DNA from: Thermodesulfobacteriota bacterium
GTDB lineage: Bacteria > Desulfobacterota > BSN033 > UBA1163
Assembly: GCA_035625415.1 (NCBI GenBank)
Contig: DASPPQ010000068.1
Coordinates: 23,590-87,589, forward strand
Direction of reading: 5' to 3'
Length of the DNA: 64,000 bases
In this document: positions 971-32,256 of the stretch, one piece after another
How the letters are laid out: every line of letters begins with the position of its first letter
Numbering within the stretch: position 1 is the first letter of the stretch
Notes under the pieces: model-generated
What the model saw: only the letters and a program-made list of their open reading frames with translations
Database searches by the model: none
What the model was told of the DNA's origin: nothing
Translations under genes and position numbers: made by a program

Positions 971-982
971 CTAAAACCCCTT

Positions 983-1131
983 AAACTCGAAACGCGACAT
1001 CCGAAATTCGAAACAATTCTATCTATTCTATCTAAATGACCAAAATGAGACGTCCAACACATTGCTGTTTTGAAAATTCGCATTTGGAATTTGTTTGGGA
1101 ATTCGATATTCGCATTTCGAATTTCATATTT
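983..1131. repeat. Imperfect palindromic intergenic element with CCAAAT/CGAAAT-type arms (family copy A)
   Basis: Left arm ...catccgaaattcgaaacaattc, right arm atttggaatttgtttgggaattcgatattcgcatttcgaatttc. Same motif family as 3531-3677, 14532-14659, 41688-41807, 48130-48282 and 54895-55036. Confidence 0.5.
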
Positions 1132-1137
1132 TTACAG

Positions 1138-3519: not shown

Positions 3520-3530
3520 CGTATACTCAC

Positions 3531-3677
3531 CAAACTCCAAATTCCAAATTCCAAATCCCAAATCCCAAGTAAATCCCAAGCACCAATTTCAAAATTTCGG
3601 AACGATTTTATTTGAATTTTGAATTTTGCAGATTGGAGTTTATTTGGAATTTGGTGCTTGTCATTTGGTGCTTTCCT
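3531..3677. repeat. Imperfect palindromic intergenic element with (CCAAAT)n left arm and (ATTTGG)n right arm (family copy B)
   Basis: ccaaattccaaattccaaatcccaaatcccaag...aagcaccaatttc // gaatttggtgcttgtcatttggtgcttt. The arms are reverse complements. Spurious ORFs on both strands translate it. Confidence 0.6.
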
Positions 3678-3679
3678 CA

Positions 3680-4186: not shown

Positions 4187-4345
4187 TTGGTCACTGCCGA
4201 GCTATCCGGAGGATCACCCGACTCCAATAGATCGAATCATAAACAACGATCGTTATTGCAATGAATCTTAAGGGGAAGGGTCTTACAAATCAATACACTA
4301 AATTATGTATTTTTAAAGCAAAAAAACTGTATTTTGAAAAGGCGC

Positions 4346-17101: not shown

Positions 17102-17130
17102 TTGACAATAGGATAGAATTATCATTTAAT
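17102..17130 (+). promoter_or_regulatory. Sigma70-like promoter of kdp leader (TTGACA-17nt-TTTAAT)
   Basis: ttgaca at 17102-17107, 17-nt spacer, tttaat at 17125-17130, in an AT-rich region upstream of the leader. Confidence 0.4.
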
Positions 17131-17139
17131 AATAAATAA

Positions 17140-17291
17140 AAAGGCCGAATTGAAATAAGCGGGGGAACCAGTTTTTAGGGGTGAATTCTAGACATCTAGA
17201 GAGGATATCCCTTAATCCTAACCCGTCAGCTAACTCCGCAGGCGACTAAGGGAGAGAATCGAACGCAGGGGATCCTCCTCTGCTTTTTTTT
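17140..17291 (+). promoter_or_regulatory. Candidate c-di-AMP (ydaO/kimA-class) riboswitch leader with intrinsic terminator, upstream of kdp operon
   Basis: Contains GCGGGGGAACC, GGGGTGAAT and ACCCGTCAGCTAACTCCGCAGGCG, recalled from memory as c-di-AMP riboswitch signature blocks. Ends in hairpin gcagggg-atcct-cctctgc plus T8. Confidence 0.5.
17265..17291 (+). terminator. Rho-independent terminator/attenuator hairpin + T-run in kdp leader
   Basis: 7-bp GC-rich stem (one G-U pair), 5-nt loop, followed by tttttttt. About 195 nt upstream of the first kdp-associated ORF. Confidence 0.6.
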
Positions 17292-17486: not shown

Positions 17487-17582
17487 ATGAACCTTGAGTT
17501 TTGGCTGATAGCGACATTTCTATTGGGCCTTGTAGCAATGGGAATAGTGTACTTATTCTTCATCGCTTGCGAGAAAATTTAA
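17487..17582 (+). CDS. 31-aa hydrophobic peptide with strong RBS (KdpF-like or leader peptide)
   Basis: taggagga is 7 nt upstream of the ATG. MNLEFWLIATFLLGLVAMGIVYLFFIACEKI forms a single predicted TM helix. Not in the ORF track because it is under 60 aa. Confidence 0.35.
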   Translation: MNLEFWLIATFLLGLVAMGIVYLFFIACEKI

Positions 17583-17599
17583 GAGAAGAGGTGATGTTA

Positions 17600-17683
17600 A
17601 TGATGATCTATGTGACAGCGGCTGTGGCGGTATTTTTGTTCGTCTACCTGGTTGCGGCCCTTGTGCGACCCGAATGGTTCTGA
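17600..17683 (+). CDS. kdpF: K+-transporting ATPase subunit F
   Basis: MMIYVTAAVAVFLFVYLVAALVRPEWF (27 aa). Resembles E. coli KdpF ...GYLVYALINAEAF. Directly upstream of kdpA. Confidence 0.65.
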   Translation: MMIYVTAAVAVFLFVYLVAALVRPEWF

Positions 17684-17724
17684 GGGCCGACAGCGGATCC
17701 TGAAAGAGAGAAAGGAGTTAAACA

Positions 17725-19554
17725 ATGTTTATCCAAATCTGGCTTCTACCTTTTTGTTTACTCGCAGCAGCGACCCTGATCGCGTTCCCTTTGAGTCGCT
17801 ACATGGGGTGGATCATGGATGGGAAATACCGGCCTTTGCCGGTGCTGGGCTGGTTCGAAAAGCGTTTGGACAGTGGCTCCCAGAACTGGAAGCAGTATAC
17901 CATCGCATTGCTCATTTTCAACACGCTGATGTTCATCTATGGCTATGTGGTTCTGTCACTCCAGCAGTGGATGCCACTCAATCCGGACGGCAAGGGGATG
18001 ATTTTCCCCACGACTATCTTTCAAGCCGTGACCTCCTTCATGACGAACACGGACCTCCAGCACTATTCGGGCGAACAGGTTTTGTCAAACTTCAGCCAGA
18101 TTTTCTTTGCCATCTTTATGCTGTTTGTGTCTGCGGCGGTCGGCCTATGTGCACTGACTGCGATGATCCGACTCTTCCGTGGCGAGTCCAAAATTGGCAA
18201 CTTCTTTGTAGACATGTGGCGGGTGCTGGTTTACATGTTCGTGCCGACCGCCTTGATTCTCGCCTTCATCTTTATGGTCCAGGGTAGTCCGATGACCTTT
18301 AAAAGTTCTTACCAGGTTTCCACACTCGAACCTGCGGCCATGGGAACCACGGACAAGGGCGAGGCAAAGCAGCAGACGATCATAGTGGGGCCGGTGGCAG
18401 CATTCGAGTCTATGAAGATGCTTGGAACCAACGGGGGTGGATTTTACGGCATGAATTCCGCGCACCCATTTGAAAATCCGACGGGGTTCACGAATTTTTT
18501 CAACACTCTGGGCATGATGATCTTTCCGTTTGCCCTCGTGTTGATGTATGGCCGAATGCTCGGCCGGATGCGGCATGCCTACGTCATTTTCTCAGTCATG
18601 TTGGTGTTGATGGCTGGCACGATCGTCTGGGCAGTCTACTACGATACACTGAAACCAAACCCGGGATTAACCGGCCATCCTATTGCACGAACATACGAAA
18701 TTCCCAGTGGAACAGCACCGGGTGGAAAACGAGTAGTAAGTCTGCCAGCACTCCCAGGGCTGCCGGTGGACCAGTACCTGGGTAACCTTGAAGGGAAGGA
18801 AATGCGATTCGGGATTTCGGCAGGGGCCACCTTCGATGCACTGACGACAGATGTGACGTGCGGCGCGGTGAATGCAGAGGAGAACAGCCTCAACCCGATT
18901 GCAGCCTTGTCGCCCATGGTCGGGATGTGGCTCAACTGTATCTACGGCGGCAAGGGGGTAGGGATGATCAATCTGTTGCTCTACTTAATCATCGGGATCT
19001 TCGTGGCTGGGATGATGGTGGGCCGGACTCCCGAGTATCTGGGTAAGAAAATCGGGGGCCGGGAGGTGAAACTGGCAATCATCGCCCTGCTGGTCCACCC
19101 CTTCATGATTCTCTTCCCTACCGGGCTGTTTGCTGCGACAAGCTGGGGGCTCAAGGCAGTCAGCAACCCTGGTGCGGATGGCTTTTCACAAATCCTGTAC
19201 AACTTTTCCTCGGCCTCCGCCAATAATGGCTCGGCATTCGACGGATTATCAGTTGCCTATGGTTTGGTAAGTAATGCAAATCCGGCGCCGACAGCGATCC
19301 CATGGAATATCGCAGCGGGCCTCGTTGTCGTCTTCAGCCGTTATCTGCCGATTGTGGCGCCGATCGCCATGGCAGCATTTCTCGGAGAGAAGAAATCGAG
19401 CCCTTTTGGTCTGGGGACCCTGCGCGATGATACAGTTACCTTCGGTCTCCTCCTGATCGGGACGATTCTTATCGTCGGAGCGCTCCTTTTTTTGCCTGTC
19501 GCAGCACTGGGACCGCTTGCAGAACACTTAGGTCCCATTCCTTTCGGAGGCTGA
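17725..19554 (+). CDS. kdpA: Potassium-transporting ATPase subunit A
   Basis: 609 aa polytopic protein with typical KdpA selectivity-filter-like repeats (NGGGF region). Sits between kdpF and kdpB. Confidence 0.9.
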
Positions 19555-19754
19555 CCAGGAAGCCTTTATGGCTGCTTATTAAGAAACTTCATTGGTGCCC
19601 TAACAATGATGAATTGCGAGATGAATCAAAGGAGTCCGATATGAATAGAGTACCCGATAGTAAAGAAACCGTGGAGACAGTTCCCTTCAGTTCGGAGCAG
19701 CCGCGATCACTGCGCCGTGTGAAGCCAAGAGGGTTGATAGAAAAGGAAACCGGG

Positions 19755-21803
19755 ATGGCGGCCTTGAAACAGGCTTTCGTGATGCTGCGGCCTGATATCC
19801 AATGGAAGAATCCTGTGATGTTTGTGGTCGAGGTGGGCGCCTTTCTGACCCTTCTGTTTATCGTACAGGCGGCATGGGGTAGGCAGACCAGTCAGGTTCC
19901 GATTGCGTATTTTATCGCCCTTGACGCATGGCTTTTTCTGACGGTTTTGTTTGCGAATTTTGCAACAGCCCTTGCCGAGGCTCGTGGTAAAGCCCAGGCC
20001 GATTCACTCAGGCGAGCCCGTCACGACACGGTGGCCTACCGTTTGAATGTTGCCGGAGCCGTCGAGGAAGTTTCCTCGACGGTTTTGAAACTTGGCGATC
20101 GGGTGGTCATACAGGCAGGGCAAACGATTCCCGGGGACGGGGAGATCATTGAAGGGATCGCCTCCGTGGATGAGTCGGCGATTACTGGCGAATCGGCGCC
20201 GGTCATCCGCGCCGCGGGCGGCGACCGATCGGGCGTGACCGGAGGCACCGTGGTCCTTTCGGATCGGATCATTGTTCGGATTACCAGCGGGGCTGGTGAT
20301 TCGTTCCTCGACCGTATGATCGCGCTGGTGGAAGGGGCCATCCGTCAGCGATCTCCGAATGAGATTGCTCTCACATTATTACTGTCGGCCTTTACACTGG
20401 TCTTCTTGATCGTCGTCATTCCGCTTTGGCCCATGGCCTGGAACGCCGAACAGTATATGATGGGATATCTAGGTCTCCAAGAACCCTTGAGGAGTCTCGG
20501 CACGGATGTTCCGACCCTCATTGCGCTCCTGGTCTGCCTCATCCCCACTACGATTGGCGCTTTGCTTGCAGCCATCGGGATTGCAGGCATGGATCGCGCG
20601 CTACAGGCCAACATCATCGCTAAGAGTGGCAAGGCAGTGGAGTTAGCTGGTGACATCGACGTTGTGCTCCTCGACAAGACGGGCACGATCACGATAGGGA
20701 ACCGGAACGCAACAACCTTCTTGCCAATCGGAAAGTATTCGGCTGCCGACGTTGGGCGGCTTGCTGCCATAGCGTCCGCCGCTGACGAGACTCCTGAGGG
20801 AAAGAGCATCGTCAGGTTGTTCGAGAAGCAAAGCCGAACTCCGGTCATCGTGCCGCCGGACGCCCAGTTTGTGCCATTTACAGCCCAAACGCGCATGAGC
20901 GGCATCGATCTTCCTGACGGCCGGCGAATACGAAAAGGAGCGCCAGACGCCATCACGAAATTCGTCGAGAGCAAGCAAGGCAGCGTGCCGGGTGATCTCA
21001 ATGCATTGGTTGATAGCGTCGCATCCAAAGGGGCAACGCCCTTAGTCGTGGCTGATGACGGCCACATTGCGGGTCTGGTCGTTCTTGAGGATATCCTGAA
21101 ACCTCATATGCGGGAGCGCTTCGTGCGGCTGAGGAAGATGGGACTTAGGACCGTCATGATCACCGGGGATAACCCTCTCACGGCTGCGACCATTGCCGCA
21201 CGAGCAGGGGTCGATGACTTTCTCGCCCAGGCCACGCCCGAGACCAAGCTCTCTTATATCCGTAAGGAGCAGGCTGGTGGAAAGCTTGTCGCCATGATGG
21301 GAGACGGCACGAACGACGCACCGGCTCTGGCCCAGGCGGACGTTGCCCTCGCCATGAACGCAGGTACGCAGGCAGCTAAAGAAGCGGCCAACATGGTCGA
21401 TTTGGACAGTGACCCCACCAAGTTGATCGAGGTGGTAGAAGTGGGAAAGCAGCTTTTGATAACGCGAGGCGCCTTGACGACCTTCTCAATAGCCAATGAC
21501 GTGGCCAAATACTTTGCGATTATTCCAGCGCTATTTGCAGGGACTTTGCCATGGCTCAAGGCGGTTGACATCATGCATCTGCATTCACCGACCTCAGCCA
21601 TCCTGTCGGCTATCATCTTTAACGCGCTCATCATCCCTGCGCTCATCCCCGTCGCACTCAAAGGAGTTAAATACCGGCCTCTCGGTGCCGATGCTCTGTT
21701 GCGCAGGAACCTTCTGATCTGGGGACTGGGAGGCGTGATTCTACCGTTTATCGGCATCAAACTGATTGATCTCATCATGGTGGGTTTTCATTTGACCATT
21801 TGA
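19755..21803 (+). CDS. kdpB: Potassium-transporting ATPase subunit B (P-type ATPase)
   Basis: DKTGTIT phosphorylation motif, TGDN and [10 protein letters not shown], about 682 aa from the Met at 19755. The ORF could start earlier, at 19614 or 19641. Confidence 0.9.
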
Positions 21804-21873
21804 TTTGAAGTGAAGCAAGCCTGCCAATCCACCCCGGTCCAGACCGCGAGCGGTGCAGGCAAGGAGGCATAAT

Positions 21874-22893
21874 ATGTTACAAACCCTTTGGAAGAGCATT
21901 TTGTTGCTGTTATTTGCTGTGGTCATCTGTTGCGTTCTTTACCCGCTGGTTTTATGGGTGATCGGACAGGCCGCCTTTTCCTTTCGGGCTAACGGCAGTC
22001 TGCTGAGAGGTCCCGACGGCAAACCGGTGGGATCGCGGCTTATTGCACAACCCTTTACCAAGGACGAATACTTTCAGCCCCGCCCCTCTGCAGCGTCTTA
22101 CGATGCGTCTGCCTCTTCCTCGTCATCCTTGTCCGCCTCCAACTACGCGCTGCGCGACCGGGTCGCCCGGGCACTTGGTCCAATTGTGAAATATCGAAGT
22201 GGCCCCAAAGTCAGACAGCCTGTGGCACTGGACATCGAAAACTGGTTTCAAAAGGATATATTCCAAGGCAAGCCTCACATCGTGGCTCAGTGGGCGGACC
22301 TGCACAACGGCCTGGCGCAAGCGTGGGTCAAGGCGGACCCCAAGAATGGCGCATATGTAGACGGTTGGACAAAGGCTCATCCAGCTATAGTCGCCCAATG
22401 GATCAAGGACAATCCCGGTACGCCTCAACCAAAGGCCGATGATTTGGCCGTCGTGTTCTTTGTGAACTTCTCCACGGAGAACCCCGGTAGATTCCCTTCT
22501 CTTGTCAGCCGCACAGGAGCCGATGGCAAGACCAAAACAACGATTGAACCGGTCAAGGAGGGGTCCGATATTCAATCGATCTTCTTTGACATGTGGCGGC
22601 AGGATCATCCCGAGGCTGACCTTCAGGACGTTCCCGGCGATCTGGTAACCACTTCCGGTTCCGGGCTCGATCCCCATATTACGCTTCAAAACGCCGAGTT
22701 TCAATTGGATCGGATCGCCTCGAAATGGGCCGCCAACTTAAAACGCGATCCGAAGGTAGTCCAAAAAGAGATTGAGGAGATATTGCAGGAAAACGCTTCG
22801 GCCCCATGGTTTGGGCTCGCGGGTGAGAAGCTCGTGAATGTCCTTGAGGTCAATCTCGAACTTCGGAGGCGGTACGGAGCACCATCGCCATAA
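21874..22893 (+). CDS. kdpC: Potassium-transporting ATPase subunit C with a roughly 150-aa internal insertion
   Basis: N-terminus (VLYPLVLWVIGQAAFSFRANGSL) and C-terminus (TTSGSGLDPHITLQNAEF...VNVLEVNLELRR) match KdpC. The middle segment (about residues 95-245) has no counterpart in 190-aa KdpC proteins. Confidence 0.75.
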   Translation: MLQTLWKSILLLLFAVVICCVLYPLVLWVIGQAAFSFRANGSLLRGPDGKPVGSRLIAQPFTKDEYFQPRPSAASYDASASSSSSLSASNYALRDRVARALGPIVKYRSGPKVRQPVALDIENWFQKDIFQGKPHIVAQWADLHNGLAQAWVKADPKNGAYVDGWTKAHPAIVAQWIKDNPGTPQPKADDLAVVFFVNFSTENPGRFPSLVSRTGADGKTKTTIEPVKEGSDIQSIFFDMWRQDHPEADLQDVPGDLVTTSGSGLDPHITLQNAEFQLDRIASKWAANLKRDPKVVQKEIEEILQENASAPWFGLAGEKLVNVLEVNLELRRRYGAPSP

Positions 22894-22959
22894 GTGGGTA
22901 ACGCAAGATCGGGCAGGGATAGCCTTTATAGACATGGAGACATAAGTCCTGTGGGGTTT

Positions 22960-23024
22960 GTCATTCCGGGCTTGACCCGGAATCCAGTTATTTCCCCCCT
23001 GGATTCCTGCTTCGTAGGAATGAC
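22960..23024. repeat. Nested-stem structured element X1 (outer GTCATTCC/GGAATGAC, inner GGAATCCAG/CTGGATTC, two local hairpins)
   Basis: gtcattcc-gggcttgaccc-ggaatccag-ttatttcccccc-ctggattc-ctgcttcgtag-gaatgac. A second copy with compensatory hairpin changes is at 38070-38145. Confidence 0.5.
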
Positions 23025-23087
23025 GTCCTTTGGTGCTATAAATGGCGCTGTGTATAGAACAGGGAAGAATTAATGGGGGAGGGGAGG

Positions 23088-24383
23088 ATGAAAAAGAGAT
23101 TAATAGGTTTGAGTCTGGCGGTGTTGATAATCCTCACATTTGGAATGAATGCACACGCCGAAGAGGCATCTTCATCGACTTCAGACAAAGAGACTCAGGA
23201 GGTAAAGCCGTCGGAGGCACCGGCACCGCCACCCGGACTGTTGATGAGTCTTTTGGGAAAGGCGGGATTGGCCCAACCTTTGGACAAGGCCGGGATTAAC
23301 ATCTACGGCTACATCGAAGGCGGTTACTTTCATGACTTCCGTGTGCCGGGGACTGGCCATGGTCCAACCTTCATCGGGTTTAATAGCTACAAGGACGCAG
23401 TTACCCTTGACAAGATCAGTCTGAATGTGGAGCGCACGGTTGATCCGGCCAAGAAGCAGTTTGACTTCGGGTTCCACGTGGAAGGTATTTATGGGACGGA
23501 TGCCGCGTTCGTCCATTCGAATGGGCTCTTTGACTCACAGACGGGCCGCTATCAAGGAGACCTTCTCCAAGCCTATGTGGACCTGACCCTTCCCGACCTG
23601 CCGGTAAGAATCCGCGCGGGCAAGTGGCTCGCACTGGAGGGCTTTGAGCAATTTAGCGCCAACATCTACGGGGCCTTCGGCGATCCGGCCAGGGCCCTCT
23701 ATTCCTATAGCTACCAGTATCTCTACGCCGAGCCTTTTACTCAGACGGGCATTCTTGTCACCACGGTGCTCAGCCCGCAGTGGTCATTTGACGCCGGCTT
23801 CACGCGGGGCTGGAACCAGTCGGTTAAAGACGCCAATGGTGTCCTGGACTTTTTGGGCCGCATCACGTTTACGCCCAGCGACAAGACCTCCATCGTTCTC
23901 GTTATGACGGAAGGCCCAGAATTTCCGGCGGGTTTCGGACACAATCTGCCTAAAGGCGACCCCCACCACTGGTGGACCGCGTTGGACCTAGTGGTCACCC
24001 AGAAAATTACTGACAAATTGAGCCTGGGCTTGGGTGGTGATTACGTCTATGCTTCGCAGATCCCCGGATTGACAGGCGGTTCGAAGCAGTGGGGAGGTGT
24101 GGCTGGCTATGCGAGCTATGCATTTGGTCCGCATTTCACGTTCAATACCCGACTGGAGTGGTACAGAGATGCGGCCAACGGCTTCTCCGACGGGGCGCCC
24201 GTCAGGGCCAACTATTATGAGGCCACGGTGGGTGTAGCCATTAAGCCTTTCCCGAATGACAAATTCCTCTCGAAGTGGCTGTTCAGACCGGAAGTGCGTT
24301 ACGACCGCGCTGATCACTCGGTCTTCGACGGGGGAGACAGAAATCAGATCACCTTCAGCGTGGATGCCCTCTTCACCTTTTAG
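23088..24383 (+). CDS. Outer-membrane beta-barrel (porin-like) protein with signal peptide
   Basis: MKKRLIGLSLAVLIILTFGMNAHA signal. Alternating amphipathic beta-strand pattern. C-terminal aromatic FTF. Inserted between kdpC and kdpD. Confidence 0.5.
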   Translation: MKKRLIGLSLAVLIILTFGMNAHAEEASSSTSDKETQEVKPSEAPAPPPGLLMSLLGKAGLAQPLDKAGINIYGYIEGGYFHDFRVPGTGHGPTFIGFNSYKDAVTLDKISLNVERTVDPAKKQFDFGFHVEGIYGTDAAFVHSNGLFDSQTGRYQGDLLQAYVDLTLPDLPVRIRAGKWLALEGFEQFSANIYGAFGDPARALYSYSYQYLYAEPFTQTGILVTTVLSPQWSFDAGFTRGWNQSVKDANGVLDFLGRITFTPSDKTSIVLVMTEGPEFPAGFGHNLPKGDPHHWWTALDLVVTQKITDKLSLGLGGDYVYASQIPGLTGGSKQWGGVAGYASYAFGPHFTFNTRLEWYRDAANGFSDGAPVRANYYEATVGVAIKPFPNDKFLSKWLFRPEVRYDRADHSVFDGGDRNQITFSVDALFTF

Positions 24384-24549
24384 GATCGGTCTTAGATCCC
24401 ATATCCGATCTTATCCTTTAGGTTATAACCCCTTTCTGGTATAATACGTGACGTTTCTGCGGGGCTTGTTTACATGCGGCGTGTAGATTAAGCTAAAGAG
24501 CGGCTCCGTTGGAATTGGATGATCCAGAATAAGGAGACGGGCTTAGAGG

Positions 24550-26601
24550 ATGGAAATACAGAAAAACGATAAAGATGCCGCAAGACCAGATCCAGACGCC
24601 CTCTTAAAGGAAGTTCAGCGTGAGGAAGAAAAAAGGGGGAGATTAAAAATATTTCTCGGTTATGCGCCGGGCGTGGGAAAAACTTACGCAATGCTTAACG
24701 AAGCACGCATATTGAAGAAAAGGGGGGAAGATGTTGTGGTCGGCGTTGTGGAGACTCACGGCCGCGTCGAAACGGAGGAATTACTTAAAGGACTGGAGGT
24801 AATTCCACGACGGGGTGCGGAATATCAGGGTATTGTCCTCGAAGAATTGGATATCGATGCCATACTCGCACGAAAGCCTTCGGTTGCTTTACTAGATGAA
24901 CTTGCCCACAGTAATGCCCCGGGCAGCCGCCATCCGAAGCGATACCAGGATATTGAGGAATTACTCGACAACGGCATTGATGTCTACACAACGGTGAACG
25001 TGCAACACTTCGAAAGCCTGAACGATGTCTTGGAAAAGATTACGGGAATTCGGACGCAGGAGACATTGCCCGATACCTTTTTAGATCGCGCTGACGAGGT
25101 TCAGGTGATTGACGTCCCTCTGGAAGAGCTCTTTGAGAGGCTGAAAGAAGGAAAGGTATACATTCCCAAGCAGGCCGAATTGGCGATGCAGAATTTCTTT
25201 CAGCGGGGCAATCTTGTTGCCTTGCGGGAACTCATGCTCACCCATGCAGCCCACAAAATGGATACCGAGCTTCTGAATTATATGAGGGCAAAGGCTATTT
25301 CCGGCCCCTGGCCAGCGGGGGAGAGAGTGATGGTCTGCATCGCCCCGAGTCCTTATGCAAAACAACTGCTACGCAAGGGTTACCAGATTGCGAAAGATGC
25401 GCATGCCGAATGGTATGCCGTGCATGTTTCCACACCTGCCCTGAAGGAGATGTCGGATAAGGACAAGGCTTACATCGCCGAGGCATTGAATCTCGCAGAA
25501 GAATTGGGGGCAAAAATTGCAACCCTTTCCGGAACGGATGTCGCAAATGAAATCGTCCGTTTTGCCCGTGAATATAATATTAACCATATCGTCATCGGAA
25601 AGCCTCTTCACTCGATGTTGCTTGGATTCTGGAAGGGCTCACCAGCCTCCCGCCTGCTGCATACTCCGAGCGAGTTTGAGCTGCATCTGATCACGCCAAC
25701 CGTTGAAAAGAGAGAGATAGAGGTAAAGCCAACCCCCGAACGGCTTACGCTCAATCCCAAAGAGTATGTCCTGACCGCCCTTATGGTCGTTGCTGTGACC
25801 TTATTGAACTTTTTCCTTCAGGGATTCGTCAATCGCATCGCTCTGGTTTACATCTACTTGATTGTGACGATTGCGGCTGCCCTGCTTTTCGGCACCGGGC
25901 CTTCGGTATTTTCCTCGATCATCAGCCTGCTCACTTTCGATTTTTTCTTTACAGAGCCGAAATACAGCTTCACCACGTACCATCCGCATGACGTCATTAA
26001 TATCTTAGTCTTCTTCCTCACCTCAGTCATTGTTGGTCAGCTTGCCAAGATAACCAAAAGGCAGAATCTTCTTTTGCAGCTTCGCCTTAGGCGAGTGACC
26101 CTCATTGAAGAGATAAGCAAGGAGTTCTTGATGCTCCCTCCCGTTGAACAACTTGTGGGGGGAATGGTTCAAAATTCGAGCGAATGGGAAAATGTTTTGA
26201 CCCTGTTTCGTACCACTGTTCTCGATCACATCAGTCATATTGCGATTAAGTACCTGTCGAGGATTATGGATGCACCCTCCTTTGTCCTTTTTATCGGGAG
26301 GGGCAAGAGACTCCAGATCTGGGCTCGAAGCAGACCGGATATTGACCTCACGCCTAATGAGATGGCGGTTGCCGAGTGGACCTATGCACACGGTGAGCCA
26401 GCTGGAGCTGGGACGCAGACGCTGCCGAGCGTTAAGGTCTTCTTTGTCCCTATGAAAACGCTTGAAGAGACCATTGGTGTCATCGGGATTCAGTTCGATT
26501 TTAAGAATCTTCTGCTTGATCAGCGGCGGCTTCTGGGTGTCATCTCCAATCTCTCAGCCCTTGCTGCTTCAAGATGGGTCAAACCATGGTCTGCCAGCTA
26601 A
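24550..26601 (+). CDS. kdpD: KdpD-type osmosensor lacking the histidine-kinase module (KdpD N-terminal domain + USP + TM + GAF only)
   Basis: LKIFLGYAPGVGKTYAML...VVGVVETHGR...LDELAHSNAPGSRHPKRYQDIEELL matches the KdpD N-terminal domain. A USP-like segment, four predicted TM helices and a GAF-like segment follow. No HisKA/HATPase region. No kdpE in the window. Confidence 0.8.
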   Translation: MEIQKNDKDAARPDPDALLKEVQREEEKRGRLKIFLGYAPGVGKTYAMLNEARILKKRGEDVVVGVVETHGRVETEELLKGLEVIPRRGAEYQGIVLEELDIDAILARKPSVALLDELAHSNAPGSRHPKRYQDIEELLDNGIDVYTTVNVQHFESLNDVLEKITGIRTQETLPDTFLDRADEVQVIDVPLEELFERLKEGKVYIPKQAELAMQNFFQRGNLVALRELMLTHAAHKMDTELLNYMRAKAISGPWPAGERVMVCIAPSPYAKQLLRKGYQIAKDAHAEWYAVHVSTPALKEMSDKDKAYIAEALNLAEELGAKIATLSGTDVANEIVRFAREYNINHIVIGKPLHSMLLGFWKGSPASRLLHTPSEFELHLITPTVEKREIEVKPTPERLTLNPKEYVLTALMVVAVTLLNFFLQGFVNRIALVYIYLIVTIAAALLFGTGPSVFSSIISLLTFDFFFTEPKYSFTTYHPHDVINILVFFLTSVIVGQLAKITKRQNLLLQLRLRRVTLIEEISKEFLMLPPVEQLVGGMVQNSSEWENVLTLFRTTVLDHISHIAIKYLSRIMDAPSFVLFIGRGKRLQIWARSRPDIDLTPNEMAVAEWTYAHGEPAGAGTQTLPSVKVFFVPMKTLEETIGVIGIQFDFKNLLLDQRRLLGVISNLSALAASRWVKPWSAS

Positions 26602-26659: not shown

Positions 26660-27868
26660 ATGAGCGACTTCTATCAAGCCGGGGTCATCACCACACTCCA
26701 TCGATTGAAGAAGATTAATCTGGAACGCATGGAAATGGAACTGGAGTTCTATTCACGATACAATCCGATTGCGCTGATACTTCCCTCCCTCTCTTCAGAG
26801 TTAAAGGAGAACGCTCTCAAGACAATCGTCTCAGAGATTCAAAAGGTTAAATACATCAGTGAGGTGATTGTCACCTTAGGGAGAGCAAATGAAAAAGATT
26901 TTGCCTCTGCCAAGGAATTTTTCTCTGTACTTCCACAGCGGACGATCGTCATCTGGAATGATGGGCCAAGGATTCATTCCCTTTACGATATCCTGACCAA
27001 GAATGATATTTCAGCAGGAGAAGATGGAAAAGGACGCTCTACCTGGATGGCCTTTGGTTATGTCCTGGCAAACGAAAAGAGCAACGTCATCGTGCTTCAC
27101 GATTGCGACATCCTAAGTTACGATCGGGAGTTTTTAGCTCGATTGTGCTACCCAGTGGTCAACCCTAATCTGGGCTATGAGTTCTGTAAGGGATATTATA
27201 GTCGCGTTACAAACAAGATGCATGGGAGGGTCACCCGGCTCTTTGTGACCCCTCTCATCCGATCTCTGGAGCGACTTTTAGGATACCTCCCCTTCTTGGT
27301 TTATCTCGACAGTTTTCGATACCCATTGGCAGGAGAATTTTCAATGATTACGGATTTGGCCCGAATTAACCGTATTCCCTGGGATTGGGGACTGGAGGTT
27401 GGAGTTCTATCAGAGGTCTTTCGTAACTGCTCCTTGAGAAGGATCTGCCAGGTCGATTTGACGGATAATTATGAACATAAACACCAGGAGCTTTCCACAG
27501 AAGATCCCAATAGAGGCCTTCTAAAAATGTCCATCGATATTGCGAAAAATCTTTTTCGAAACTTAGCCAGTGAGGGCATTGATCTTTCCGAAAGCCTGCT
27601 GAAAACATTGAAGGCCACTTATCTAAGAACGGCTCAAGAAACTATTACAAAATATCATGATGATGCTGCCATTAATGGCCTCGATTTTGATCGTCATGAG
27701 GAAGGGGTGGCCGTAGAAACCTTTACCAAGGGAATCGAACTGGCAAGTAAAGCCTTCGTGGAAGACCCTCTAAGCATTCCCATCATCTCCGCTTGGAACA
27801 GGGTTACCTCCGCGATCCCGGACTTTTTGGAGAGGCTGAAGAATGCTACCGACGACGACAACACGTAA
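26660..27868 (+). CDS. mpgS: Mannosyl-3-phosphoglycerate synthase (GT55-like)
   Basis: 402 aa. YDILTKNDISAGEDGKGRSTWMAFGYVLA and VIVLHDCD resemble the Pyrococcus/Thermus MpgS motifs ([30 protein letters not shown]). The stop overlaps the start of the phosphatase gene. Confidence 0.6.
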   Translation: MSDFYQAGVITTLHRLKKINLERMEMELEFYSRYNPIALILPSLSSELKENALKTIVSEIQKVKYISEVIVTLGRANEKDFASAKEFFSVLPQRTIVIWNDGPRIHSLYDILTKNDISAGEDGKGRSTWMAFGYVLANEKSNVIVLHDCDILSYDREFLARLCYPVVNPNLGYEFCKGYYSRVTNKMHGRVTRLFVTPLIRSLERLLGYLPFLVYLDSFRYPLAGEFSMITDLARINRIPWDWGLEVGVLSEVFRNCSLRRICQVDLTDNYEHKHQELSTEDPNRGLLKMSIDIAKNLFRNLASEGIDLSESLLKTLKATYLRTAQETITKYHDDAAINGLDFDRHEEGVAVETFTKGIELASKAFVEDPLSIPIISAWNRVTSAIPDFLERLKNATDDDNT

Positions 27869-28682
27869 ACTCGTGATCTTTACAGATCTGGATGGCACTT
27901 TACTCGATCGGGATACCTATTCATTTGAACCCGCCTTGCCTGCCCTTAATCTAATTAAACAGAAAGGTATTCCTCTTATTCTTTCGAGCAGCAAGACCGG
28001 GAACGAGATTGAGCTATTCCAAAAACAATTGGAAAATAGCCACCCCTTTGTTTCCGAAAATGGAGGAGCGATCTTCGTCCCCAAAGATTATTTTTCCTTT
28101 CCGTTCCATTACGACAGAGCATTGGGGGATTATTTCGTTATGGAATTGGGGGCGCCTTATTCCATCATTACTGAAGTCTTAGATTCGATTAGAAAAGAGA
28201 CGGGGATTTCAATAAAAGGCTTCTCTGATTTCACCGAGGAGGAACTGTCTTCCCTTTGCGGGTTGGGCCAGAAAGAGGCGGCGTTTGCTAAGAAGAGAGA
28301 GTACGATGAGCCATTCGTGATCGAAGGCGAAGAGAAAGAATCCGAAATAGTGAAAAGAAAGATAAAAGACAGGGGGATGCACTATGCTTGGGGGGGGAGG
28401 TTTCATCATATCTTCGGAAAAAACGACAAAGGAAAGGCCGTTGAGATTTTGAAAGAACTCTATGAGACTCAATTTTTCTCAATTTTTACGGTGGGGATTG
28501 GAGATAGCCTGAACGACCTGCCCATGTTGTCAATAGTCGATTATCCAATCTTTCTTAAAAAGAAGGCTGATCTCCTACCAGAAACGCTATCGCCGATTCA
28601 AAATGTCAGGGTCATAAATGGGGGAGGTTCCGAGGCCTGGAACGAAGTAATTCTGAGCGTAGTCCACGCGTTAGAAATTTGA
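27843..28682 (+). CDS. mpgP: Mannosyl-3-phosphoglycerate phosphatase (HAD-IIB, YedP family)
   Basis: LVIFTDLDGTLLD...GIPLILSSSKTGNEI...GIGDSLNDLPML is the characteristic MPGP-family pattern. Confidence 0.75.
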   Translation: MLPTTTTRKLVIFTDLDGTLLDRDTYSFEPALPALNLIKQKGIPLILSSSKTGNEIELFQKQLENSHPFVSENGGAIFVPKDYFSFPFHYDRALGDYFVMELGAPYSIITEVLDSIRKETGISIKGFSDFTEEELSSLCGLGQKEAAFAKKREYDEPFVIEGEEKESEIVKRKIKDRGMHYAWGGRFHHIFGKNDKGKAVEILKELYETQFFSIFTVGIGDSLNDLPMLSIVDYPIFLKKKADLLPETLSPIQNVRVINGGGSEAWNEVILSVVHALEI

Positions 28683-28702
28683 CCGGAGAGTACCCCGCAA
28701 TC

Positions 28703-28722
28703 CCCGCCCTTCAGGGCGGGGT
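28703..28722 (+). terminator. GC-rich hairpin after mpgP (ccccgccc ttca gggcgggg), no T-run
   Basis: Perfect 8-bp stem 20 nt after the stop. A second hairpin gctccgccc tttg gggcggagagc lies at about 28770-28793. Confidence 0.3.
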
Positions 28723-28803
28723 CAGGGGGTACAATATAAAAGAAACAGCATGCCGGAAAGCTCCGCCCTTTGGGGCGGAGAGCTTTACTTCGAAGGTAAA
28801 CCG

Positions 28804-30264
28804 ATGGGGTTCTTTTATTGGTTCATCTTTCTAATGACCGTTGCAATATTTATCTTTGCGATCCAAAATTCAACTGCTCCTACTGTTGCAATGAAATTTC
28901 TCATATGGAGATTCGATGCCTCCCTGATCTACACCTTTTTAGGATCGATCGGAGCGGGCATTCTCATGGCCTTTATCTTCTGGATTCCAAGAGCTATCAA
29001 GGTATCCATTCAATCGAAGGAGTTAAAAGAGCGGATAGAAAACCTTGAAAAAGTTTTATACGGACCTGCCGCCCCCGAAGAGGCACAAACCCAGAGAGTT
29101 ATGAAAAAAGCGATCGTTATTCCTGTCTATCTCAGATTCAATCAACCGGAGGAATTACCTCATTTAGAGGAACTGAGGTTGGCGAAGAGGGCAATCGAAA
29201 GCTTGAAGATATTGGAGGACCAGGATTTCACCCTCATCCTTCTTGTCTGTTTTGATTCGACTGGTGGAGAAGAGGAGGTTTCCTTGCTGGAGATGGACAG
29301 ATTCGTCAGAAAGGAGGTTCATAATCTATGGGAAGGGAAAACCATACTTTTCTCATCCCATCATCTGAAAATGTTAAGGAGAAATTTAGATCAAAGAGAT
29401 TTCAGAGGATTCTCTTCCCTTACGGATCTGAAGGGATTTTCAAAGATTCGTAACGTTGGCCTCCTTCTTGCTCAAGCGCTCTCGGTGGATGTGGCTATCT
29501 TCATCGATAATGACGAAGTCTTGGAAGCCCCGCGCTATTTAAAGGTCGCCTGTGAATATTTAAACGAGAGGTGGAATGGTAAGGTTGTGGCCGGAAAAGG
29601 AGGATTTTACGTTAATCCGGATGGGACGATCCTTCTCCCTCCGAGACGGCTTTGGTGGGATTTTCTCTGGAACAAGACGAAATGGATGAATCGGGTTTGG
29701 GAGAGAATCCTCTCATCTAAAGACCGACTCGTCTTTTCGCCGATCCTTTTGGGTGGAAACCTCGTCCTGCATTGTGACCTTTTTCGAAGCGTCCCCTTTG
29801 ACCCATATATTCCGAGAGGAGAGGATATCGATTATCTCATCAATGCCAGCCAGTTTGGGCTATCTCTCTTATTTGATCGAGAGCTCCAGATTAAACACCT
29901 TCACCCCGAAAGATCGGAAGCGTTCTTTCAGGAGGAGTTGCGGGGCGATATTGAACGGTTTCTCTATGAGCGAGAAAAGGTGAAAAGAGGGCTGTGTGTC
30001 GATCTCAACCCTTACCCAGGATATTTTTTGAGGTGGACCCTCTACCCCAGAGCGATTCTCACCTCTCTGTTCCTTAGTCTCAATTATTTGGGAAAAAGAG
30101 AATGGAAAAAGGCAAAGGAGTGTCTCAGCTGCGTGAGGCTCCTTTTTAAGAAGAGGGACGGAGACGGGTTGAACTATCTAAAATTTAGAGCAGATTGGGA
30201 GAGGGTGATGGTGGAAGTTCAAAGAAATTGGATGGTGGAAATATTGAAGAGTTGTTGGGTATAG
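28804..30264 (+). CDS. LapA-like (DUF1049) membrane anchor fused to a GT-A fold glycosyltransferase-like domain
   Basis: N-terminus FYWFIFLMTVAIFIFAIQNSTAPTVAMKFLIWRF...SIGAGILMAF is LapA/YciS-like. It is followed by IVIPVY and a FIDNDEV (DxD-like) segment. The start is placed at Met-19 of the ORF track because the upstream codons lie in a hairpin. Confidence 0.4.
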   Translation: MGFFYWFIFLMTVAIFIFAIQNSTAPTVAMKFLIWRFDASLIYTFLGSIGAGILMAFIFWIPRAIKVSIQSKELKERIENLEKVLYGPAAPEEAQTQRVMKKAIVIPVYLRFNQPEELPHLEELRLAKRAIESLKILEDQDFTLILLVCFDSTGGEEEVSLLEMDRFVRKEVHNLWEGKTILFSSHHLKMLRRNLDQRDFRGFSSLTDLKGFSKIRNVGLLLAQALSVDVAIFIDNDEVLEAPRYLKVACEYLNERWNGKVVAGKGGFYVNPDGTILLPPRRLWWDFLWNKTKWMNRVWERILSSKDRLVFSPILLGGNLVLHCDLFRSVPFDPYIPRGEDIDYLINASQFGLSLLFDRELQIKHLHPERSEAFFQEELRGDIERFLYEREKVKRGLCVDLNPYPGYFLRWTLYPRAILTSLFLSLNYLGKREWKKAKECLSCVRLLFKKRDGDGLNYLKFRADWERVMVEVQRNWMVEILKSCWV

Positions 30265-30279
30265 ATTCTGAGAGGGTGG

Positions 30280-31524
30280 ATGGAAGAGTCGTTTCGGACT
30301 CAGTTAGAAGAGGCTCAAGAGGCCGATATCTTAATCGGGATTCCGAGCTACAATAATGCCCGAACGATCGGTCATGTGGTGCTTGCGGTGATGGCCGGTC
30401 TTGCCAAATACTTTCCAAATGTCAGGGCAGTGATGGTCAACTCGGACGGTGGGTCATCCGACGGAACTCAAGACGAGGTCAGGAGGGTTCAGATCGAAGA
30501 TTTTAAGACCATTCTTACCTCCCATCCCGTCTATCCGATTCAGAAGATTGTTACTCCCTATCATGGAATCCCCGGAAAAGGAAGCGCCTTCCGCACCATT
30601 TTTGAGGCCGCCAGGATTCTAAAGGCAAAGGCCTGTGCAGTGGTCGATTCGGATTTGAGGTCGATCACCCCGGAATGGATGGAACTTCTTCTCAGGCCTA
30701 TTTACGAGGAGGGATTTGACTACGTCGCCCCTCTTTATGCCCGGCATAAATTCGATGGGACCATCACCAATAGTATCGTTTATCCTTTGACACGGGCGCT
30801 CTACGGGAAAAGAATTCGTCAGCCGATTGGAGGGGATTTTGGTTTTTCTGGAAAGCTGGCAGAATTCTATTTGACCAGAGATGTTTGGGAAACCGATGTC
30901 GCCCGGTTCGGAATTGATATCTGGATGACCACACTCGCCGTTGCCGAAGGATTTAAGGCATGTCAATCCTATCTCGGTGCTAAAATCCATGATGCGAAAG
31001 ACCCTGGAAGCGATCTCGGGCCGATGTTTACTCAAGTCGTCTCTTCTGTCTATCGTTTGATGGAGGAATATCAAACTCTTTGGAGAGGGGTTAAAGAATC
31101 GCAACCCATTCCAAGTTTTGGGTTTCATTATGAGGTGGGATTGGAGCCGATTTCTGTAAATGTAGAAGGGATGATAGGAAACTTCAGGCAAGGGGTTCGG
31201 GATCTGGCTGAAATTTGGGAAAAGGTGGTGCTTCCTGAAACAGTCCTATGGCTCGAGTCCATTGCACGGCTATCAGACGGAGCATTCTCCTTTCCCCAAG
31301 ATTTATGGGTTCGTTTAATCTATGATTTCGCTCTAGCCTATTACAAACGCGCGGTCCACCGCGAACATTTGCTGAAATCGATGATCCCCCTTTATTTAGG
31401 CCGGGTGGCGTCATTCGTTAAAGAAAATCAGAAAAGTTCTGCGGAGGAGGTCGAAAGAGAGATCGAATCCCTTTGCCAGGCCTTTGAACAGATGAAGCCT
31501 TATCTCATAGAACGCTGGGCCTGA
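30280..31524 (+). CDS. GT-A fold (family 2-like) glycosyltransferase
   Basis: ILIGIPSYNNARTIGHVV, NSDGGSSDGT and CAVVDSDL (DxD) motifs. 414 aa. Confidence 0.5.
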   Translation: MEESFRTQLEEAQEADILIGIPSYNNARTIGHVVLAVMAGLAKYFPNVRAVMVNSDGGSSDGTQDEVRRVQIEDFKTILTSHPVYPIQKIVTPYHGIPGKGSAFRTIFEAARILKAKACAVVDSDLRSITPEWMELLLRPIYEEGFDYVAPLYARHKFDGTITNSIVYPLTRALYGKRIRQPIGGDFGFSGKLAEFYLTRDVWETDVARFGIDIWMTTLAVAEGFKACQSYLGAKIHDAKDPGSDLGPMFTQVVSSVYRLMEEYQTLWRGVKESQPIPSFGFHYEVGLEPISVNVEGMIGNFRQGVRDLAEIWEKVVLPETVLWLESIARLSDGAFSFPQDLWVRLIYDFALAYYKRAVHREHLLKSMIPLYLGRVASFVKENQKSSAEEVEREIESLCQAFEQMKPYLIERWA

Positions 31525-31536
31525 AAAGAAGAGGAG

Positions 31537-32256
31537 GTGAAGGATATGGGAGAGGTGTGGAAAGTGACCATCACAGATTCCTTGAACAGATTTTTGGGCA
31601 AAGTCATCGTATTCTTACCCAATCTACTGGCGATGATCACCATCCTCGTCGTGGGGTTTTTCGTCGCCTGGATCTTCAAGAAGCTCCTTTTTCGTTTCCT
31701 GAAGGCCATCCAGTTTGACAAGGTGAGCAGACAATGGGGGTTGGCCGATGTCTTGTCCAAAGGAGGGGTGACTTATTCTCCTGCCAACCTTTTGAGCCGT
31801 TTCTTCTATTGGGTGATCGTTCTCGTTACGCTCATTTTAGGGATCAATGCTCTTGAAGTTGCAGCCACTCAAAACTTGATCACCCAATTCTTTAATTACC
31901 TCCCCCACCTTTTTGCTGCAGTGACTATCCTTGTTATCGGATATTTGATTGCCATCTTTCTGGGCCAGGCAACCCTCATTGCAGCGGTTAACGCCCAAAT
32001 GGAATCAGCCAAACTCCTGAGTCGATTGGTCCGATGGTTCTTTATCATTTTTTCCCTGAGCATGGCCCTCTATCAATTAGGCATTGCAGAAAAGGTGATC
32101 ACCGCAGCCTTCTCCGTTATCTTTGGGGGGATTGTTCTTGCTCTTGCCATAGCCTTTGGATGGGGAGGGAGAGAATTAGCCAAGGATCTTCTTGAGAGAC
32201 TGTATAAAAGAAAGGAGAAGGGTGGCGAAGGACCAGACCATATTTCTCATATCTGA
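31537..32256 (+). CDS. Membrane protein with repeated conserved-TM-helix segments (MscS-family N-terminal-like; mechanosensitive channel-related)
   Basis: Four long hydrophobic helices with repeated ...LL..I..LVVGF.VA.I/LGINALEVAATQNL pattern. No cytoplasmic MscS beta-domain. Confidence 0.35.
   Translation: MKDMGEVWKVTITDSLNRFLGKVIVFLPNLLAMITILVVGFFVAWIFKKLLFRFLKAIQFDKVSRQWGLADVLSKGGVTYSPANLLSRFFYWVIVLVTLILGINALEVAATQNLITQFFNYLPHLFAAVTILVIGYLIAIFLGQATLIAAVNAQMESAKLLSRLVRWFFIIFSLSMALYQLGIAEKVITAAFSVIFGGIVLALAIAFGWGGRELAKDLLERLYKRKEKGGEGPDHISHI

Follow-up and report, generated by a model that had tools for sequence, protein, structure and literature searches.

A conserved variant of the Kdp potassium pump with a long KdpC and a c-di-AMP riboswitch in a Thermodesulfobacteriota bacterium

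Introduction

The kdpFABC operon of Bacillus thuringiensis BMB171 is under the control of a c-di-AMP riboswitch and is accompanied by a truncated KdpD (Wang et al. 2019, PMC6488665). KdpD versions truncated for the DHp/CA module have also been described elsewhere, and the N-terminal domain of KdpD is an atypical serine kinase that phosphorylates KdpB-S162, switching KdpB off (Silberberg et al. 2024, PMC11018627). The motif by which the Usp domain of KdpD binds c-di-AMP is (A/G/C)-x-S-x-S-x2-N ... (Y/F) (Dutta et al. 2021, PMC8214093). Within the pump, KdpC is extracytoplasmic and has been compared with the Na,K-ATPase beta subunit and the P4 ATPase Cdc50, which are extracytoplasmic accessory subunits (PMC10654040).

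Here, we describe a kdp locus from a Thermodesulfobacteriota bacterium (GCA_035625415.1, contig DASPPQ010000068.1, positions 23,590–87,589, forward strand). The window is this whole stretch of 64,000 nt, and all coordinates below refer to it. The regulatory logic of the locus, a c-di-AMP riboswitch combined with a KdpD without histidine-kinase module, has largely been published already; a 31-residue membrane protein and a periplasmic KdpC domain of about 140 residues appear to be undescribed so far.

Results and Discussion

The kdp locus occupies positions 17487–26601, with leader elements from 17102. Its features are as follows.

17102..17130, + strand: promoter-like element TTGACA-N17-TTTAAT, directly 5' of the riboswitch, read from the sequence, with its function inferred
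17133..17259, + strand: c-di-AMP riboswitch aptamer, ydaO/kimA class (RF00379)
17265..17291, + strand: intrinsic terminator (terminator scan), 8-bp GC-rich hairpin and U8, putative expression platform of an OFF switch
17487..17582, + strand: orf31, 31-aa single-pass membrane protein, ATG start
17600..17683, + strand: kdpF, 27 aa
17725..19554, + strand: kdpA, 609 aa
19641..21803, + strand: kdpB, 720 aa from ATG
21874..22893, + strand: kdpC, long form, 339 aa from ATG 21874
22171..22599, + strand: inserted periplasmic domain of KdpC, residues about 100–242
22963..22983, + strand: hairpin between kdpC and the porin gene (terminator scan), possible partial terminator with a weak T tail
23073..24383, + strand: BBP2-family (OmpL-like) outer-membrane beta-barrel porin, 436 aa
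24550..26601, + strand: KdpD homologue without histidine-kinase core, 683 aa

The catalytic and selectivity motifs of KdpA, KdpB, and KdpF are canonical, and all three proteins score above curated thresholds, as members of the KdpFABC family do: KdpF reached 24 bits with Pfam Potass_KdpF (cut-off 21.2), KdpA 610 bits with Pfam KdpA and 478 bits with TIGR00680 (cut-off 388), and KdpB 987 bits with TIGR01497 (cut-off 528). KdpB carries DKTGT (D345) and TGES (S185, the equivalent of E. coli S162), and the KdpF C-terminus (..RPEWF) is kept across loci. Alternative starts are present for kdpB (TTG at 19614) and kdpC (GTG at 21853, giving 346 aa).

The locus encodes a genuine and conserved variant of Kdp, the high-affinity potassium pump of bacteria. 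The original prediction comprised four observations, namely a small ORF before kdpF, an enlarged KdpC, an embedded outer-membrane protein gene, and a shortened KdpD without kdpE; all four are present in the sequence and none is artefactual. The description of the locus as atypical did not hold, as it belongs to a widespread Kdp subfamily with 385 genomic relatives (approximately 228 clusters at 50% identity, E < 1e-30). Three marks characterize this subfamily: the extra periplasmic domain of KdpC, insertions in KdpA, and the strictly co-occurring orf31. The KdpA insertions, at about residues 305–345 and 508–522, are clade-specific and were defined against E. coli KdpA and the canonical KdpA paralogues of the same MAGs. 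On balance, we favor the reading of the locus as a distinct KdpFABC high-affinity K+ uptake ATPase subfamily (long-KdpC type) with its own regulators.

Residues 10–99 of KdpC align with residues 9–100 of E. coli KdpC, and residues 243–331 with residues 107–186. From these two flanking segments it follows that about 140 residues stand in place of six in the E. coli protein. The large insertion expected between conserved N- and C-terminal parts was therefore confirmed, with about 140 residues in a protein of 339 aa. The proposed alignment and structure prediction delimited the insert to about residues 100–242, with a confidently predicted, Trp-rich fold (pLDDT 95) of mostly helices and a beta-hairpin, for which we found no Pfam family and no structural match in the PDB. 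The insert is conserved among homologues, and the KdpC length recurs in more than 120 clusters; among the best 120, nearly all have 337–339 aa. The domain may enlarge the periplasmic cap formed by KdpC and thereby help complex stability or K+ capture.

The ORF preceding kdpF, MNLEFWLIATFLLGLVAMGIVYLFFIACEKI, has the ribosome-binding site AGGAGG 8 nt 5' of its start, and 17 nt separate its stop from the start of kdpF; the 31-aa hydrophobic ORF with a consensus ribosome-binding site was thus correctly recognized. Homologues of exactly 31 aa occur in 69 of the 69 related loci for which DNA 5' of kdpA was available, with invariant G14, F24, and C28 and the C-terminus A-C-E/D-K-I. The dN/dS is approximately 0.18, and variation is highest at third codon positions. 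Searches of Pfam and NCBIfam returned no family for orf31, which public sources name only "hypothetical protein". It is always found together with a KdpC bearing the domain of about 140 aa, including cassettes whose KdpC is merely 57–64% identical (one of them from Planctomycetota), and it is missing from the canonical kdp operons that occur in the same loci. Other small hydrophobic peptides are encoded besides kdpF in kdp operons, namely KdpG in cyanobacteria and KdpZ in Alicyclobacillus, but their ORFs sit between kdpB and kdpC, unlike orf31.

The small ORF had been taken for a leader peptide. As a regulatory leader, its translation would modulate the downstream kdp genes without the product being part of the pump. 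As the first ORF of the transcript, about 200 nt past the riboswitch terminator, it has a suitable position, and upstream small ORFs are often cis-acting. However, the fixed length, the invariant residues, and the low dN/dS indicate purifying selection on the amino-acid sequence, as in a conserved membrane subunit, and the product is a transmembrane helix like KdpF. Moreover, orf31 is retained under any regulatory module (riboswitch, KdpDE, NtrC-type, or none) and still adjoins kdpF where the gene order is rearranged (locus L030 and the Nitrospirota loci), and 5' of it only the ribosome-binding site is conserved across loci. We thus regard a regulatory leader peptide as quite improbable, and infer that orf31 may serve this Kdp variant as a fifth structural subunit resembling KdpF.

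A beta-barrel gene does lie between kdpC and the KdpD homologue gene as proposed, with a product of 436 rather than 432 aa. The protein matched PF07642 with 190.8 bits (gathering score 26.2) over profile positions 2–339 of 339, and its sequence shows a signal peptide (..AHA/EE) and ends in Phe. In its mature form it is net acidic (45 D/E vs 33 K/R), and it probably delivers K+ across the outer membrane. Porin genes are located equivalently in L008, L009, and L023, and in approximately 15 other loci kdp is flanked by BBP2 genes. Because just about 20% of related loci have the porin, and 180 nt with a hairpin lie between its gene and kdpC, the pump does not have it as an obligatory partner.

The riboswitch suspected in the leader proved to be real: RF00379 was matched at 98.1 bits (cmscan; gathering score 38, E = 5e-22) over model positions 1–134 of 134, and the aptamer scored 118 bits with a covariance model built in this analysis. 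The terminator hairpin starts 6 nt 3' of the aptamer (−12.4 kcal/mol, z = −2.5), and its stem is altered by two compensatory changes in L008 and has yet another sequence in L007. These two loci, the closest riboswitch-bearing relatives, also keep the promoter-like element, which the consensus scan did not list. Given a full-length riboswitch with an 8-bp hairpin and a U8 tract behind it, c-di-AMP very probably governs kdp transcription here. No diadenylate cyclase was seen in the 64-kb window.

The KdpD homologue comprises KdpD_N, Usp, a four-TM DUF4118, and GAF_3 (Pfam) and ends after the GAF domain, as anticipated; the Pfam scan revealed no HisKA or HATPase. Each region has a sequence match in the PDB: the N-terminal domain (2r8r), Usp (7ji4), the TM region (2ksf), and GAF (4qpr). 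A full-length KdpD (L011, 888 aa) is alignable only through its residue 648. Directly downstream, after 59 nt, lies a gene for a GpgS-like glycosyltransferase instead of a kinase continuation. The NCBIfam model for the sensor histidine kinase KdpD (NF007793) gave 540 bits (cut-off 1123) and matched no further than profile position 522 of 895, and that for the KdpD-like non-kinase potassium sensor (NF038185; KdpD_N and Usp, about 370 aa) gave 385 bits against 550, the protein having DUF4118 and GAF in addition to that architecture.

To call the protein kinase-less is misleading, as only the histidine-kinase module is gone and the N-terminal Walker A/B serine-kinase domain is kept. KdpD_N contains Walker A (G41-x-G43-K44-T45), Walker B (D116/E117), and the adenine-coordinating R197, with Y46 in place of E. 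coli W39 as in P. syringae 2r8r. With these motifs, the TM region, and GAF present and DHp/CA absent, the protein has the features of the serine-kinase-only, DHp/CA-truncated KdpD class (PMC11018627). The Usp domain, conversely, gives little reason to expect the predicted c-di-AMP sensing: aligned to 7ji4, it reads C-I-A-P-S-P-Y-A ... H (S244→A, N249→A, Y271→H), so that three of the five positions of the published binding motif, which was derived from Firmicutes, differ.

Could the short KdpD be a decaying, functionless remnant? What makes KdpD a sensor kinase, its histidine-kinase module, is gone, and both NCBIfam scores fall below their cut-offs. Yet the best 120 clusters (84–100% identity, of more than 120 at the same length) have 678–686 aa, except for one of 708 aa; the stop position and the C-terminal ending ..RWVK.W..K are conserved in 119 clusters, as are the domains among 119 homologues (Usp 94%, KdpD_N 89%, GAF 84%, TM 82%). 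The catalytic motifs are intact, and an independent lineage shares the architecture, namely the unrelated Zixibacteria MAG L028, in which a riboswitch accompanies a KdpD_N-Usp-TM-GAF protein without kinase core that is only 37% identical. Decay is therefore highly improbable. We give practically no credence to the idea that errors of assembly or sequencing produced the KdpC insertion and the KdpD truncation, for which no supporting point was found. The identical 683-aa protein is encoded on 10 independently assembled contigs, and hundreds of homologues have equal KdpC and KdpD lengths; the KdpC insert folds as a confident domain, and no kinase-coding remnant is present 3' of the kdpD homologue. 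The artefact reading is refuted by this recurrence on independent contigs and in homologues and by the missing downstream remnant.

Searches of the whole window (tblastn and phmmer with the KdpD kinase core, KdpE, an NtrC-type regulator, and a PAS kinase as queries) found no other regulators; the expected lack of a response regulator or kdpE is borne out for these 64 kb. Among 81 related loci, a histidine-kinase module within 10 kb was found in none of the 11 with a riboswitch 5' of kdp and in 26 of the 70 others, a count that is no more than suggestive, as the compared loci are not phylogenetically independent. The proposal that control here depends on c-di-AMP rather than on two-component signaling thus stands as far as the riboswitch with its terminator and the absence of both components from the window are concerned, but it finds little support in the Usp domain, and the logic of riboswitch plus truncated KdpD had already been published for B. 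thuringiensis (PMC6488665).

Alternatively, a two-component or NtrC-type system elsewhere in the genome may control transcription, with the riboswitch as a second layer only; the 683-aa protein would then serve a separate kinase as its sensor partner, an arrangement seen in split KdpD systems. Split or alternative kdp regulators are common in the subfamily, with such modules (PAS histidine kinase, NtrC-type regulator, KdpD_N-Usp-EIIA protein) in approximately 20 loci. The sister MAGs L009 and L023 encode the same 681–683-aa KdpD homologue (86–89% identical to this one), but in place of the riboswitch they have a PAS histidine kinase, encoded upstream, and a KdpD_N-Usp-EIIA protein; some short-KdpD species use a separate two-component system (Silberberg et al., PMC11018627). 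Neither a histidine kinase nor a response regulator is encoded in the window, however, no such module lies within 10 kb in any of the 11 loci with a riboswitch, and riboswitch and functional KdpDE are mutually exclusive (Wang et al., PMC6488665). We consider external control rather unlikely and favor the riboswitch as the probable transcriptional control.

Judging from anatomy and precedent, c-di-AMP would rise when cellular K+ is sufficient and bind the leader aptamer, upon which the terminator would form and kdp would remain untranscribed; low c-di-AMP would allow read-through into kdp. By homology, the 683-aa protein would be incapable of signaling to a response regulator, but it keeps its Walker A/B serine-kinase and K+-sensing TM/GAF domains and most likely phosphorylates the TGES serine S185 of KdpB, turning the pump off once K+ returns.

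MAGs from peat and soil, representing more than eight phyla, carry the long-KdpC core, with pump core proteins 69–93% identical across many phyla, and pair it with interchangeable regulators (riboswitch, KdpD/KdpE, or NtrC-type system). This comparison shows that lineages have exchanged the regulatory front and back ends around a shared pump core. In a bolder reading, which we consider unlikely at present, the long-KdpC type would have five subunits and a distinct structure in which orf31, the Trp-rich KdpC domain, and the KdpA loops form an enlarged K+-capturing periplasmic vestibule, with a dedicated cation porin in porin-carrying lineages, adapted to extremely K+-poor acidic peat. If true, such an adaptation would explain the horizontal spread of the cassette across more than eight phyla.

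Comparison with known systems

Like B. thuringiensis BMB171, this locus has a ydaO-class aptamer and a terminator in the kdp leader, a downstream KdpD homologue without histidine-kinase module, and no kdpE nearby; mutual exclusivity of riboswitch and functional KdpDE is also common to both systems. In contrast, the arrangement was described as essentially limited to Bacillales (PMC6488665), and here it occurs in a MAG of the diderm Thermodesulfobacteriota. The KdpD homologue has TM and GAF regions and 683 aa, compared with 365 aa in B. thuringiensis, and the pump, unlike that of BMB171, belongs to the long-KdpC type and is accompanied by orf31 and a porin.

With the DHp/CA-truncated KdpD proteins (PMC11018627), the homologue shares the order KdpD_N, Usp, TM, GAF without DHp/CA, the Walker A/B motifs, the adenine-coordinating Arg, and the KdpB TGES serine. 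That class is reported mainly from Campylobacterota and Archaea and was discussed in connection with constitutive expression; here it is paired with a riboswitch.

By analogy only, KdpC resembles the Na,K-ATPase beta subunit and Cdc50 as a single-pass accessory subunit with a folded extracytoplasmic domain atop the transport subunit; we found no homology, and no PDB structure matches the KdpC insert. Compared with E. coli KdpFABC (PDB 5MRW, 6HRA, 7BGY), the pump described here has an extra 31-aa membrane protein, a domain of about 140 aa inserted in the periplasmic KdpC, KdpA insertions of about 30 and 12 aa, and an N-terminal extension of KdpB.

The original prediction for this kdp locus held for its observations and in part for its interpretation. 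The riboswitch candidate was confirmed (98.1 bits; gathering score 38), as were the hydrophobic 31-aa ORF with a ribosome-binding site ahead of kdpF, the enlarged KdpC with an insertion, the outer-membrane protein gene between kdpC and kdpD, and the KdpD homologue without a histidine-kinase module, with small corrections to the start of kdpF (17600) and to the lengths of KdpC (339 aa from the ATG) and of the outer-membrane protein ORF (436 aa).

Features of the kdp locus (window positions, strand)
17102-17130, +: promoter-like TTGACA-N17-TTTAAT, read from the sequence
17133-17259, +: c-di-AMP riboswitch aptamer (RF00379)
17265-17291, +: 8-bp hairpin followed by U8, the terminator of the riboswitch
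17487-17582, +: orf31, 31 aa, with AGGAGG upstream, about 200 nt past the hairpin and U8
17600-17683, +: kdpF
17725-19554, +: kdpA
19641-21803, +: kdpB
21874-22893, +: kdpC
23073-24383, +: BBP2-family porin gene
24550-26601, +: KdpD homologue, 683 aa

Residues ~100-242 of the window KdpC stand where E. coli KdpC has six residues. That this insertion might be an assembly artefact was not borne out, as a length of 337-339 aa recurs in nearly every one of the 120 best KdpC clusters. The wider long-KdpC subfamily comprises ~228 clusters (50% identity) at E < 1e-30, whose members are 310-400 aa long and down to ~40% identical; tryptophans 124, 140, 151, 165, and 241 are invariant. Among PDB structures, the insert had no match. 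KdpC is extracytoplasmic (PMC10654040), which makes the inserted domain periplasmic. KdpA of the long-KdpC clade has insertions of its own, ~30 aa at residues ~305-345 and ~12 aa at 508-522, which E. coli KdpA lacks, so the pump core is a co-evolved variant rather than one odd gene. Canonical KdpA paralogues of the same MAGs lack both insertions and instead have an 18-aa insertion near residue 210.

A homologue of orf31, exactly 31 aa long, lay directly before kdpF in all 69 related loci reaching upstream of kdpA (tblastn), with an ATG or rarely a GTG start and a GGAGG site. It was also present in more distant cassettes, one from Planctomycetota, and was not found in the canonical kdp operons of the same loci. 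Within the consensus MNLxIWLPAMFLLGLxxMGLCYLFLKACEKI, G14, F24, and C28 never vary, and W6, E/D29, K30, and I31 hardly do. The gene stays next to kdpF when gene order changes, and the third codon position varies most among 71 distinct coding sequences. The ORF is therefore real, as predicted, but a role as leader peptide is at odds with its dN/dS of ~0.18, its fixed length, and its retention under every regulatory module; this signature points instead to a small membrane subunit. A duplicate of kdpF was rejected, since the ..RPE(W/K)F motif is missing from orf31 and the Potass_KdpF model does not recognise it. Neither Pfam nor NCBIfam gave a family match, and public sources label the protein only as 'hypothetical protein'. 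Across 68 loci, the ribosome-binding site was the only conserved element found upstream of orf31, and a search there for sigma-54 promoters gave a single convincing match, in the sister locus L023.

Several arrangements around orf31 differ from that of the window. Four Nitrospirota MAGs (L032, L037, L041, and L059) have the order kdpF-like, orf31, kdpA, kdpC, kdpB, with KdpB just 56-59% identical, and two loci (L030 and L060), which show traces of duplication or of pseudogenes, have kdpA, orf31, kdpF, kdpB, kdpC. Just upstream of orf31, loci L087 (4274-4720) and L090 (3528-3968) encode membrane proteins of 146-148 aa, in which a TM helix is followed by VCEKF or ICDKC, recalling the ACEKI end of orf31; the two share the ending TWHGQ and might be related to orf31 or partner it. 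In riboswitch-less sister MAGs, a ~180-aa lipoprotein-like gene lies between the upstream regulators and orf31 (L023:4696-5241 and L009:4781-5527), and many other loci have ORFs of 150-190 aa at the same place.

The porin matched the BBP2 profile over its full length; 180 nt and a hairpin lie between its gene and kdpC. The kdpC-porin-kdpD order is maintained in the closest relatives, and a second BBP2 type, ~25% identical, flanks kdp in L087, in L088, and in about a dozen further loci; the association of porin and kdp is recurrent, not obligatory. The mature porin is net acidic, which makes K+ supply across the outer membrane a plausible function. For orf31, for the KdpC domain, and for the porin, the mechanistic role is inferred.

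Straight after kdp (26660-32256) lie genes for a GpgS-like glucosyl-3-phosphoglycerate synthase and an MPGP-family phosphatase, a pair that suggests compatible-solute synthesis, followed by a LapA-domain protein (504 aa), a glycosyltransferase-like protein (414 aa), and a mechanosensitive-channel-like protein. Together with kdp, these form an osmoadaptation neighbourhood, which was conserved on all contigs with an identical kdpD. Separately, two similar gene sets, one near each window end (287-5650 and 50396-54866), each encode a ~800-aa molybdopterin-oxidoreductase-like protein with a twin-arginine (Tat) signal, a ~230-aa 4Fe-4S protein, and a ~430-aa membrane protein; by eye, they resemble paralogous respiratory complexes.

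Scanning one genome for each species gave 385 long-KdpC relatives. The best 80 of these, 69-84% identical, came from MAGs labelled Thermodesulfobacteriota, Nitrospirota, Acidobacteriota, Zixibacteria, Binatia, Gemmatimonadota, Verrucomicrobiota, and Alpha- and Betaproteobacteria. Projects on peat, bog, fen, or soil account for nearly all of them, and several are on megabase contigs. Across phyla, KdpA and KdpB were 66-93% identical, whereas identity to the canonical second kdp operons of the same loci was only 35-40% for KdpA and 54-60% for KdpB, which suggests horizontal spread of the pump core. The GC evidence for transfer is ambiguous: core GC averaged 4.3 points above the flanks (richer in 56 of 64 loci) and tracked flank GC (r = 0.81), and the excess may reflect membrane-protein composition. 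Around the core, the regulators differed by locus: a riboswitch; full-length KdpD with KdpE; a PAS histidine kinase with an NtrC-type regulator and a KdpD_N-Usp-PTS_EIIA fusion; or nothing recognisable. Even among the nearest relatives of the window, L007 and L008 have the riboswitch, whereas L009 and L023 have an upstream histidine-kinase module; the porin and a 681-683-aa KdpD homologue are kept in L008, L009, and L023, and L007 ends inside the porin gene.

KdpFABC is a model chimeric channel-and-pump transporter in which the roles of the accessory subunits KdpC and KdpF are unclear (PMC12629597). Among open-access papers, we found nothing relevant on porins linked to kdp, on a long KdpC, or on an additional small Kdp subunit (weak evidence), nor a description of a pump core combining orf31, long KdpC, and modified KdpA. 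This widespread variant, with its KdpC periplasmic domain, matching KdpA insertions, and putative fifth small subunit, is a natural perturbation of a poorly understood part of Kdp. That it is abundant in MAGs from peat and soil, across many phyla, suggests a K+-scavenging adaptation of ecological importance, and one pump core with at least four control modules makes a clean system for studying regulatory exchange.

The KdpD homologue is not truncated by error: the 683-aa protein was identical, with the same neighbours, on 10 independently assembled contigs, and the GpgS-like gene starts 59 nt past kdpD, with no kinase remnant there. Its length was 678-686 aa (one 708 aa) in the 120 best-scoring clusters (84-100% identity). 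Among 119 homologues, domain conservation was 94% for Usp, 89% for KdpD_N, 84% for GAF, and 82% for TM, and the C-terminal end ..RWVK.W..K was shared at the same position. The truncated form is a stable architecture rather than a product of decay. All four non-kinase domains have PDB matches (2r8r, 7ji4, 2ksf, and 4qpr), and the protein scores under both NCBIfam cut-offs (full KdpD, 540 vs 1123; KdpD_non_kinase, 385 vs 550). No other match to the KdpD DHp/CA core, KdpE, an NtrC-type regulator, or a PAS kinase was found in the 64-kb window (tblastn and phmmer).

The KdpD N-terminal domain is an atypical serine kinase that inactivates the pump, once K+ is back, by phosphorylating KdpB-S162 (Silberberg et al. 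2024, PMC11018627). KdpD versions without the histidine-kinase part fall into two classes, KdpD/Usp-only and DHp/CA-truncated, both mostly in species without KdpE (PMC11018627); the window protein fits the latter. Its serine-kinase residues are present (Walker A G41-x-G43-K44-T45, Walker B D116/E117, and R197), as is the TGES serine of the window KdpB (S185). Hence, the description of this KdpD as kinase-less is correct for the histidine-kinase output but wrong in the sense that matters.

The proposal that c-di-AMP sensing replaces two-component control here has to be divided. Usp as the sensor fails the one sequence test at hand: in the alignment with the S. aureus Usp/c-di-AMP structure, the window protein has C-I-A-P-S-P-Y-A...H at the positions of the motif (A/G/C)-x-S-x-S-x2-N...(Y/F). 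[quoted passage not shown] In many related loci, KdpD_N and Usp are fused to PTS_EIIA_2 (564-567 aa; L023:2959-4662, L069:3937-5631, and L052:3870-5567) beside a histidine kinase of the HAMP-PAS kind and, often, a sigma-54 regulator of NtrC type; the Usp motif of these fusions, C-L-S-S-R-G-P-N...Y, is nearer the c-di-AMP-binding consensus than that of the window protein.

As a transcriptional signal for kdp, c-di-AMP is supported. The aptamer and terminator layout is that of a predicted OFF switch, and the two nearest relatives with a riboswitch keep the promoter, aptamer, and terminator, the stem of the latter showing compensatory changes. A covariance model from 13 copies, run on 80 related loci and the window, placed a riboswitch upstream of kdp in 11 of the 81. 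A histidine-kinase module within 10 kb accompanied none of these 11, versus 26 of the 70 others (chance of 0/11 ~0.01 by our own arithmetic, the loci not being independent). An unrelated Zixibacteria MAG (L028) independently combines the riboswitch with a KdpD_N-Usp-TM-GAF protein without the kinase core, only 37% identical. The 236-nt leader past the aptamer had no distinctive fold (z = -1.4). Further c-di-AMP riboswitches, in two loci with full-length KdpD (L011:15319-15468 and L071:3396-3532), precede not kdp but APC-type transporters of 671 and 680 aa (KimA-like by eye).

In B. thuringiensis, whose kdp leader has been characterised by experiment, the aptamer and terminator are arranged alike, KdpD is likewise truncated, and kdpE is absent (PMC6488665); the riboswitch-kdp arrangement was thought essentially restricted to Bacillales (Wang et al., PMC6488665). 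The regulatory logic follows published schemes and is not new in principle, but it is carried beyond Bacillales, extending the scheme of a c-di-AMP riboswitch with a serine-kinase-only KdpD to diderm soil anaerobes.
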